DNA of 64,000 nt from Escherichia coli (GTDB taxonomy: Bacteria; Pseudomonadota; Gammaproteobacteria; Enterobacterales; Enterobacteriaceae), in NCBI RefSeq assembly GCF_044647545.1, contig NZ_CP172818.1; one strand, given 5' to 3'. Each line of letters begins with the position of its first letter. The stretch's first letter is position 1. The notes beneath the pieces were generated by a model that saw only the letters and a program-made list of their open reading frames with translations, did no database searches and had not been told where the DNA came from. Both the position numbers and the translations under genes were made by a program. This document shows positions 47,399 to 50,300 of this stretch, in pieces.

Positions 47399-50300
47399 TT
47401 ACCATTTCACCGTCATCGACAAAAACCCTGCCGTCTGGGCAAAATCATCACTCCCTTTCTGCCACGCCACGCTGCCGCGCAGGGACACTCGCTGACTGAT
47501 ATTGCCCGTGACTCCCACTTTTATTTCACCCCGTTGCTTCACCCCATCGTCACTGATAGTGCTGCCATCTTCTTCAATTTCCGTCGCATGGGGATCGTGA
47601 TAATAATTCAGATCTAATGTTGGTATGACATGAACAGCGGTACGCCATTCGCTGTGTAAACCCAGCCGCGTCTGAATATCATCACCCTGCGATTGTGACA
47701 CGCGCGCATGGTTAGCGGCGGTAAAATCATCCTGCTGCACGCCCTGATAAATCACCTGCGCCTGCGGTTCAATCACCACACCATGCCCCGGTAACCACTG
47801 ATACCCGGCTTCCAGCGAGGCGATAATCCCCGACGAATGGTAACGATCCACGCCATCGTCTTGTTCAGAAACATCATTGTTAAACCACGCATATTGCAGC
47901 CAGCTATCCAGCCAGACCCCCTGCTTCTGATTACCGTGCTGATACCAGCTTGAGGTCAGCCCAACGGCATAACCGTGGTTCTGGTTATCGGCGCGAGTTC
48001 CGCTCATATTCGAGCGGCTGTCGCCCTGGTTATCGCTGTAGCCACCAACAATCCCAAGCATCCACTCGCCATCATCACCCCAGTGCCCGCTAAACAGGTT
48101 GCCGCTAAGCTGCACCGTAGAAGTGTCTTCATGCTGAGCCAACTGCCCTGCCGCCGTGTAATGATAACGCCCGCCGATAACGCGTAAATTCAGCGTCTGA
48201 CCATCGCCACCAGCGTGATCGCGTCGCTCCATCACAAATGCCTGATTTGCCGCACGTAGGTTATTAAAATATCCACCAACTTTGGCATTCAACACCGGCT
48301 GGTAAGCAGGCGTAGGTCCAGGGTCGGGGGTTGGGTCGGGATCCGGCGTGGGATCAGGATCTGGAGTCGGGTCCGGATCGGGCGGCGGCGTCGGAGTGAC
48401 TTCTTGCGATCGCAGATACCAGTCGTTGTTATCTTCCACCAGCGTATAGTCATACGCCCCCATATTGACGTAGCCGCTTCCTGCCAGACGGAACTGCGCA
48501 TTGTTTTGAAACTGCGTGGGATCAGCTGCGAAATCAACCACTTTAATACCTGTAGATGTCGGCTCACCAATACCCGTAATGGGGTTAATTACCACGGCCG
48601 TGTTGCCAGCAGTATTACCGTTCAATACCAGTTGGTCACTTGCCGAGTCATCGCCGTTTAATTCGCTGTCGAGCAGTAGCGTACCGCCGCCGGTATAATC
48701 ACCATTTACCGTCAGCGTGTCGCCAGCGACGCCATTTTGCAGGCTAATCGCACCGGACGTATTGGTCAGATTGCCATTAACCGTCACGTCGGAAAGATAA
48801 GTCAGGCTGTCAGTTTCAAGGTTGGTATTAAGCTCGCCTGTCAGCGTCACGCCATCGGTGGCATTCACCAACGTACCGTCGCCGCTAAACAGCGAGGCAT
48901 CCAGCACCTGGTTCGTATCCTGCTGCGTCAATCGCAACACAGTACCATCGGTTATGTCGATATCGCCGCCAGAGGTGGCATCGATTGAGCGAATATCCTG
49001 ATTTTGCCGGTTTCAAAAACACCGTCTTCCCCCACCCACAGTGAAGAAACATAAGGAATAATATTCTCCGCTTCACCTTTTAGCGTTCCGTCCTCCACAC
49101 GTACCGCAGACGTCGCAGTGCCGCTGGCGGTCAACTCCAGCGTACCGCCGCCACTTTTAGTCAACGTGCTTACGCTCTCCAGTTGTTGCCCGGTACTATC
49201 CGCCATCAACCCGCCCCATTGCGTATCTACGCCATCCTCAACGTGTATTTCGCCATCAGCGCGCATTTCAATATTCCTGCCCTGACCTGTTGTAGCCGAG
49301 CGAGTGTCAACATCAGTCGTCACATCCATTTCACTGTGTTGTTGGGGATCTGTGAAGATCACTGAACGGTTGTATCTTGTGTCCCCCAATTGCGAATTAT
49401 CGCTGACTTCAAGCGTACCGGAGGCGATTTGCGTATTACCGAGATAACCGTTGTTATTCGCCAGCGTTACGCGCTGATCCCCCGCATTAATGACGACATA
49501 AACGCCATTCTGGCTGGCATCACTGCCGCCAATATGTAAATCATCGCCACTGCTGATATCAACGACATCATTACTGCCAATCACTGTCCCCCCGCTGCCG
49601 CTGATTTGCAGACCGTCATTGTATGAGCTATCGCCATCCCAGGTGGTGAAATCAGAGAGATCCAATACTCCGCCATTTAGCACGATCGATTGCGGATCGC
49701 TCTGCATTGCCCGTAAATCGGCCTGATTCCCCGCTAGCGACAATACGGCGTTATCTTCCACCACAATATCGCCGGTTAATGCCATCGACTGCGCCCCTGT
49801 CAGGAGATAGCTGCCATCTTGCGCTACCGTCAACTGTCCTTCACCCTGAATCGAGCCGGAAAAACCGCCCTGGTTTACGGTAACATTGCCGCCTGCGTCG
49901 ATATTCAAAATGCCATTAGCAAAACCGGTTAATGAGTGCACAAACGTTTGTTGTGTATTGCCAACATTCAGTTCTGCCTGATACTCAGAATGAACAGTGC
50001 TGCCGACCATCAAACCAAAGCAATCCTGCGGATCGCTCTGACAGTGCGTGTCGCCGACATTCATTAACTCATCGCTGCGCCCCAACGTCACCTCGCCATT
50101 CTGGATACTCATCTCGCCGGTAAACGCATTATTGTCGGCATTGAGGACTAACTCTCCCGCTCCCTCTTTCACGATGACTCCCGTTCCGGCAAGAGAATCA
50201 ATCGCGCCATCGTTGCTGGTATTGCCTATTACCAGCGTTTTATCGGCGGCAATGTTGAATTCAGCCACACTATGACCGATATACATAAAGCCCCCCGCCG

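Follow-up and report, generated by a model that had tools for sequence, protein, structure and literature searches.

A probable proline-rich spacer of the Escherichia coli autotransporter adhesin YfaL/EhaC and its lineage-associated lengths

Proline-rich tethers whose length depends on the allele are already known from the autotransporters TibA and pertactin, and a further example carries little weight for biology at large. In TibA, a proline-rich domain (residues 627-677) follows the junction (autochaperone) region and precedes the membrane-embedded domain (PMC3835316). In Bordetella, pertactin alleles differ in the number of their proline-rich repeats, a number that changes slowly and not within one infection (PMC8931430).

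Some of the properties of YfaL, also called EhaC, have been described as well. It belongs to adhesin Group 8 in a recent classification of autotransporters (PMC9289746). The gene is silent under laboratory conditions, and its phenotype, an increase in biofilm formation, requires expression from an inserted constitutive promoter (PMC3764049). Deletion of yfaL lowers the adherence of O157:H7 to HEp-2 cells (PMC7864753). The signal peptide of the protein is 28 aa long, and its C-terminal 465 residues, linker included, serve as a surface-display anchor (PMC13101318). The literature that we searched yielded no paper or experiment that deals with the linker of YfaL or with polymorphism in it.

Here we analyse the linker of a yfaL gene located in a stretch of 64,000 nucleotides of the E. 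coli contig NZ_CP172818.1, which as a whole is referred to as the window. We consider it likely that its repeat tract is a proline-rich spacer of YfaL/EhaC, duplicated, scrambled at the level of codons and present in the species as a few stable, lineage-associated length alleles. The tract is an ordinary feature of a known kind in a known, annotated adhesin.

The assignment of the tract to yfaL, made in an earlier note on this DNA, was confirmed by the NCBIfam equivalog NF007285. With the intact allele as the query (the gene of the window minus its 1-nt frameshift, with a product of 1,252 aa), the profile scored 2724.9 bits over 1-1252, against a cut-off of 1459. The two open reading frames into which the gene is divided in the window cover profile positions 1-716 and 739-1250. 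The name yfaL is the one annotated in 5,425 out of 5,426 complete E. coli genomes, and the chromosomal position is conserved: ubiG and gyrA flank the gene on one side, and ypaB and nrdA on the other. The same four neighbours are found in strain FDAARGOS_497. The features of the locus are collected in Table 1.

Table 1. Features of the yfaL locus, with positions in the window and residues of the intact protein
Feature	Position	Strand	Residues	Basis
yfaL/ehaC, AIDA-I-family type Va autotransporter adhesin gene	47399..51156	minus		NCBIfam NF007285, annotation and neighbours
Upstream ORF, 734 aa: signal peptide and passenger up to the frameshift, 17 out-of-frame codons, stop	48952..51156	minus		
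1-nt deletion, GGG to GG (CCGGGCAAAAT -> CCGGCAAAAT), frameshift after codon 717	49006..49007	minus		Comparison with FDAARGOS_497
Downstream ORF, 513 aa from GTG: rest of the passenger, autochaperone, linker, helix and barrel, without signal peptide	47399..48940	minus		
Autochaperone domain, Pfam AC_1	48440..48772	minus	796-906	Pfam
Proline-rich tract TPTPPPDPDPTPDPDPTPDPDPTPDPGPTP	48308-48397	minus	921-950	Translation
Four 18-nt units, PDPDPT x3 then PDPGPT	48311..48382	minus		Repeat searches and self-match
Predicted pore-spanning alpha-helix	48242..48286	minus	958-972	AlphaFold2 helix (fragment 179-193) and conserved motif
Autotransporter beta-barrel domain, PF03797	47468..48187	minus	991-1230	Pfam, 4MEE alignment and AlphaFold2 strands

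The order of domains is that of a type Va autotransporter, with a signal peptide, a beta-helical passenger, an autochaperone, an alpha-helical linker and a 12-strand C-terminal barrel. Pfam recognised the domains PATR, Chlam_PMP, AC_1 and Autotransporter, and the protein is also matched by TIGR01414. As the note had proposed, the tract is encoded by the minus strand and separates the passenger from the barrel. More exactly, it is situated between the autochaperone domain (...NDWYLRS) and the pore helix. In an AlphaFold2 model of the C-terminal 473 residues (mean pLDDT 84), this predicted helix is followed by the strands of the barrel, while the tract itself is modelled as coil devoid of secondary structure (pLDDT 43-52). 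A GxYxxNLxAAN motif in the region of the pore helix is conserved among homologues.

The closest solved structure is the transport unit of AIDA-I (4MEE, E = 2e-38), whose autochaperone, pore helix and barrel can each be aligned with YfaL. The autochaperone of YfaL aligns with its counterparts in both AIDA-I and IcsA (3ML3) and ends at WYLRSQ; the WYLTS of AIDA-I is aligned with the WYLRS that closes this part of YfaL. The two proteins differ beyond that point, where AIDA-I has a short non-proline segment, LPTSDTRQYRPENGSY, in place of the 30-residue proline tract of YfaL. At the same junction, homologues at 29-38% identity have proline-rich (P-D/E/T) tracts whose length ranges from about 9 to about 50 aa, and some of these tracts are very short; where their source was named, these homologues come from other Enterobacterales. 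Since AIDA-I and some of the homologues have short segments, a long spacer is not required for secretion in the family.

The likeness to TibA concerns position and architecture; the sequence and the passenger are different, and glycosylation is a feature of TibA. Pertactin shares with YfaL the presence of proline-rich, loosely structured repeats (R1, GGxxP, and R2, PQP) whose copy number depends on the allele. However, the pertactin repeats belong to a cleaved passenger, as loops of its beta-helix or as the C-terminal end of that helix, whereas the tract of YfaL is a tether to the barrel. In addition, discussions of vaccine or immune pressure concern pertactin and not YfaL.

The note had reported a Pro/Thr/Asp repeat at 48300-48395, composed of near-tandem 12-bp units. 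Such a tract is indeed present, within the slightly different limits given in Table 1, and the three 12-mers that had been quoted occur at 48333, 48345 and 48357. The encoded peptide had also been read correctly, except at its N-terminal end, which is ...TPPPDPDPT and not PTPDPDPT. The length of the unit, on the other hand, has to be revised. Tandem Repeats Finder, a second repeat search and a self-match at successive lags all gave a true period of 18 nt, that is, 6 aa. The first of these programs reported a period of 18 with 2.6 copies and 75% matches at 48333-48379, and the second, on the plus strand, found 3 copies at a spacing of 18 nt with 71-76% identity.

Within the 72-nt core of the tract (48311-48382), self-match reached 69% at lag 18 and 75% at lag 36, but only 52-53% at lags 6, 12 and 24. 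The last three values are alike because a CCN codon returns at every second codon, i.e., every 6 nt, and on these figures a 12-nt period was rejected. The peptide behaves in the same way, with matches at 17 of 18 positions at a lag of 6 aa versus 13 of 20 at a lag of 4 aa. The 37/54 matches at lag 18 within a 72-nt span set the tract apart from everything else in the whole 64-kb window. We also looked at positions 8298-8303 of the window as a second candidate for 12-nt periodicity and, on reading the sequence, found no real repeat there. An Rfam scan of the whole window at gathering thresholds placed no known RNA over the tract; only MicF and naRNA4 were found, both far away.

At the DNA level, the repeat is much less regular than in the protein. 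The 30 residues comprise 16 Pro, 7 Asp, 6 Thr and 1 Gly and are encoded by DNA with 71% G+C, yet the 18-nt units share pairwise only 11-14 of 18 nucleotides (61-78%). This low identity is due to the scrambling of synonymous codons. All DNA differences between the three PDPDPT units are synonymous, and the prolines of the tract use all four codons (CCG 6, CCC 4, CCT 4, CCA 2). The tract is a head-to-tail tandem repeat in which an old duplication is kept in the peptide and scrambled in the DNA. It would have arisen by duplication of an 18-nt unit; selection would then have held the peptide while synonymous drift rearranged its codons.

The same scrambling bears on whether the peptide matters. 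Synonymous changes next to a perfectly conserved peptide argue for purifying selection on the peptide, and distant homologues retain the P-D/T periodicity. Both observations speak against the possibility that the tract is a neutral, low-complexity filler, which could be replaced by any flexible segment and would drift without consequence. This alternative draws on AIDA-I and several homologues, in which the segment is short or of another kind, and on the occurrence of lengths from 22 to 38 aa in intact genes. We regard it as unlikely, although it is the least improbable of the competing explanations.

The sequence has the features of a polyproline-II-type spacer: proline occupies every second position (16/30), and neither helix nor sheet is predicted. 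Alternating X-Pro segments are known from TonB (Glu-Pro/Lys-Pro) and from the hinge of OmpA, where such a pattern favours an extended polyproline-II form and serves as a tether that keeps distances within the envelope. The resemblance of the YfaL tract to these spacers is one of composition only, as they are periplasmic and belong to unrelated proteins. The alternation of proline with acidic and hydroxyl residues, together with the lack of predicted structure, argues for an extended, polyproline-II-like tether of acidic character, which would be unable to form a helix or a sheet.

We favour a spacer in which about 30 residues, with proline at every second position, join the last strand of the autochaperone to the helix that plugs the 12-strand barrel in the outer membrane. 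An extended chain rises by about 3.1 Å per residue. This value would give the tract a maximum length of about 9 nm, to which each 6-residue unit would contribute about 1.9 nm. Such a spacer may keep the folded autochaperone and the beta-helix clear of the barrel loops and of the lipopolysaccharide core. As the tract adjoins the pore helix, it would probably be among the first segments to pass through the barrel.

To compare alleles, we took as linker length the number of residues enclosed by two conserved flanks, NDWYLRS and YQPVL. We searched 5,426 complete genomes with 501 nt of sequence that had the tract at its centre, and picked 60 records at regular intervals down the ranked matches. In this sample, 40 records had the length of the window allele (offset 0 nt, 34 aa), 13 were shorter by 18 nt (28 aa), 3 were longer by 6 nt (36 aa), 2 were shorter by 24 nt (26 aa) and 1 was shorter by 9 nt (31 aa); one further record carried a larger deletion. 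A second, independent sample of 60 records, likewise spread over the quantiles of the ranking and obtained with another query that matched 5,419 complete genomes, contained 39 linkers of 34 aa, 13 of 28 aa, 3 of 36 aa, 3 of 26 aa and single ones of 30 and 22 aa. Over both samples, which are not a full census, the frequencies were 65-67% for 34 aa, 22% for 28 aa, 5% for 36 aa and 3-5% for 26 aa.

In general, the suggestion that the stalk or linker differs in length between E. coli alleles was borne out, and the outcome by which the note would have been refuted, an identical copy number in every allele, was not observed. The segment lengths observed in Escherichia were 22, 26, 28, 30, 31, 34, 36 and 38 aa. 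The 38-aa form comes from Escherichia sp. KS167_9B and was found, together with several 22-aa forms, in a large protein collection that consists mostly of fragments. In 20 representative loci, every change in length fell inside the proline tract. To look for linkers in other Escherichia species, we scanned genome contigs for a 25-mer taken from the left flank; the sole exact match was the E. coli representative, whose linker is 36 aa long, and this route thus gave no series across species.

All of the observed indels are in frame, and copy changes of an 18-nt unit necessarily stay so. Two pairs of alleles show the copy-number polymorphism of whole units that is expected of a variable-number tandem repeat. 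Exactly one 18-nt unit separates the 36-aa form from the 30-aa form, with the deletion located between two copies of the 11-nt sequence GATCCTGATCC; exactly one unit also separates the 28-aa form from the 22-aa form, here with the deletion between two copies of a 20-nt exact repeat. The remaining differences in length amount to 6, 9 and 24 nt. Strain VTB97022v has lost 168 nt in frame, and the lost stretch is bounded by two copies of the 12-nt CTGATCCCACGC, one within the autochaperone domain and the other within the linker. To judge from these sequences, the indels would fit rare events in which short exact direct repeats misalign or recombine. Across the species, such in-frame events have probably left a handful of stable length alleles associated with lineages, and the locus is probably not a rapidly switching one.

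A different expectation follows if the tract is a hypervariable in-frame repeat, in which frequent replication slippage makes the stalk differ between close isolates. The existence of length alleles, two pairs of which differ by exactly one unit, would be compatible with this idea, and so would the 20-nt perfect repeat of the 28-aa allele, for which a derivative shorter by one unit exists. However, the allele of the window carries no exact internal repeat longer than 8 nt, so that the scrambling of its codons has left little to misalign. Its units are imperfect and 18 nt long, and in these respects it does not resemble a contingency locus.

The distribution of alleles points in the same direction. 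The best 59 records, all of which carry the allele of the window, were identical (59/59, 100%) over the 501 nt around the linker, and no length differences within one clone were therefore seen among them. Their sources are humans, dogs, birds, a dolphin and wastewater; a strain with the name ST648 is among them. All 5 sampled O157:H7 genomes belong to the full-length class (34 aa was read in one, and the length of the matching span agreed in the other four). The 22-aa form was matched at an identity of at least 99% in only one of the 5,419 matching complete genomes, compared with about 1,100 in the 28-aa class. Finally, clustering on 1,500 nt of flanking sequence grouped the loci largely by length class, i.e., length follows the phylogeny of the flanks. 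Taken together, these results leave frequent slippage with very little probability. The tract had been called prone to expansion and contraction, which is right insofar as length alleles exist but overstated for the allele in the window. As far as the sequences indicate, the tract is not hypervariable, and its variation tracks the lineage of the allele.

The comparison with K-12 illustrates this stability. The yfaL of the window is 82.9% identical to that of K-12 over the gene, and despite this 17% divergence the number of units is equal (PPDPDPTPDPDPTPDPDPTPDPEPTP in K-12). In K-12 and O157:H7, YfaL/EhaC is the product of this gene, which occupies the same locus there, with ubiG on one side and ypaB/nrdA on the other. 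K-12 differs in having TPPSPP and PDPEPT where the window has TPTPPP and PDPGPT, and it lacks the frameshift.

The preservation of the PDPDPT units between alleles that are so different also bears on the possibility that the tract is an exposed epitope, immunodominant or ligand-binding, whose variation is driven by host immunity and not by a role as a spacer. We find this improbable. The length classes are few and lineage-bound, and the gene is silent under laboratory conditions (PMC3764049). What could still be cited in its favour is the precedent of pertactin, whose alleles vary in the number of proline-rich repeats (PMC8931430), the prediction that the tract is exposed and unstructured, and the substitutions at positions other than proline (E, G, A, D, I, Q and S variants).

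It is also conceivable, though we would assign this only a slight chance, that the length of the linker acts as a ruler for the thickness of the surface polysaccharide. In that case, the discrete length alleles would co-vary with the type of O-antigen or capsule; the data themselves show length classes bound to lineages. If it were true, a linker of 22-38 aa (about 7-12 nm if extended) would expose or mask the passenger, and the in-frame loss or gain of units would be a way for lineages to retune the exposure of the adhesin.

In the window itself, yfaL is not an uninterrupted reading frame. The gene measures 3758 nt, against 3759 nt for the intact allele of FDAARGOS_497, and the 1-nt deletion, confirmed by blastn, is the sole difference between the two. 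It precedes the tract by about 610 nt. Of the 5,426 complete genomes, 1,245 match this stretch; the GG form was absent from all of these (best identity 99.0%), and in the best 30 of these 1,245 matches, FDAARGOS_497 included, a 101-nt query placed over the deletion spans 102 nt.

Over 48 kb, the window and FDAARGOS_497 differ by only 2 substitutions, plus indels. Besides the deletion in yfaL, the differences comprise a 3-nt deletion, one more single-base difference beside a junction and a deletion of 1.87 kb. Because the window has other small indels relative to its closest relative, the frameshift is possibly an assembly error. The yfaL of the window is probably a pseudogene, unless the deletion is an error of sequencing or assembly. 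With a real frameshift, the linker falls in the untranslated remnant of the gene, and no secreted adhesin that contains it is produced; this is probably the case, unless sequencing introduced the deletion.

For practical purposes, the linker provides a clean in-frame length marker for yfaL allele lineages. It is located within the C-terminal display anchor of YfaL, which makes its length an obvious parameter to vary. In many draft short-read assemblies, contigs break inside the linker, which makes complete genomes the proper basis for any survey of its length. An IS insertion or an expansion of the repeat was considered as a possible cause of such breaks in Shigella sonnei; the contig ends there contain only native linker sequence, and the gap between them may be as small as about 15 nt. 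The gyrA gene of the window strain carries the changes S83L and D87N, and these, together with the frameshift in yfaL, are more consequential for this strain than the linker.

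In the window, yfaL (also known as ehaC), which encodes an autotransporter adhesin, lacks a single nucleotide at 49006-49007, where GGG is shortened to GG, and the reading frame is lost after codon 717. This deletion was found in none of the 5,426 complete E. coli genomes compared. Either yfaL is a strain-specific pseudogene here, or the assembly is in error at this site.

Inactivated or altered forms of yfaL occur in other strains. We observed insertion sequences within the gene in W409 and 2018-10-1CC, and an in-frame loss of 56 amino acids in VTB97022v, which extends over the last part of the autochaperone domain and into the proline-rich linker that follows it.

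Comparison of yfaL from the window (47399-51156, used as the reference) with locus L002 and other loci revealed deeply diverged allele classes. At least 95% identity to the reference was observed in 1,245 genomes, while 4,178 reached only 80-90%; the K-12 gene is 82.9% identical. Conservation of the passenger is far lower than that of the C-terminal third.

Additionally, many draft Shigella sonnei and E. coli genomes have contig ends within the linker (loci L022-L026; proteins P0013, P0014 and P0028-P0077). Upstream contigs of these drafts end at differing points of the tract, and downstream contigs share one common first base (CGGCCCCTACG) in 4 independent assemblies. The breaks may result from sequencing dropout in the tract, which has a G+C content of 71%, from an insertion or from an expansion.

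Outside yfaL, further differences separate the window from FDAARGOS_497, the closest compared genome. About 1.87 kb of the latter is absent from the window; the loss takes in the greater part of a gene for an MFS transporter and the beginning of one for a LysR-family regulator. The junction (56543-56555) sits on a short imperfect direct repeat (CAGATAAA). A 3-nt deletion (GTG) was detected at 54159, directly downstream of nrdA. Two substitutions were also found, at 35167 and 41244, the second of which lies inside yfaS; in FDAARGOS_497 the annotation treats this gene as a pseudogene containing an internal stop.

GyrA encoded in the window carries S83L and D87N relative to the wild-type stretch HPHGDSAVYDTIV. 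This pair of changes is typical of fluoroquinolone-resistant E. coli. A strain named ST648 is among the closest genomes.

Finally, Rfam searches matched two RNA genes: naRNA4, whose score only narrowly exceeds the threshold, and MicF, located upstream of ompC, as expected.

Features located in the window and in comparison loci
Feature	Location	Strand	Remarks
IS421 insertion in yfaL	L003 1200-2312		strain W409
IS3 insertion in yfaL	L016 141-1303		strain 2018-10-1CC
yfaL with 56-aa in-frame deletion	L011 445-4029		strain VTB97022v
yfaS	L018 22615-27129 (~window 36767-41281)		alpha-2-macroglobulin family; L018 is from FDAARGOS_497
gyrA	window 43762-46389	-	
MicF RNA	window 20166-20259	+	116.8 bits
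naRNA4	window 23920-23996	-	59.8 bits
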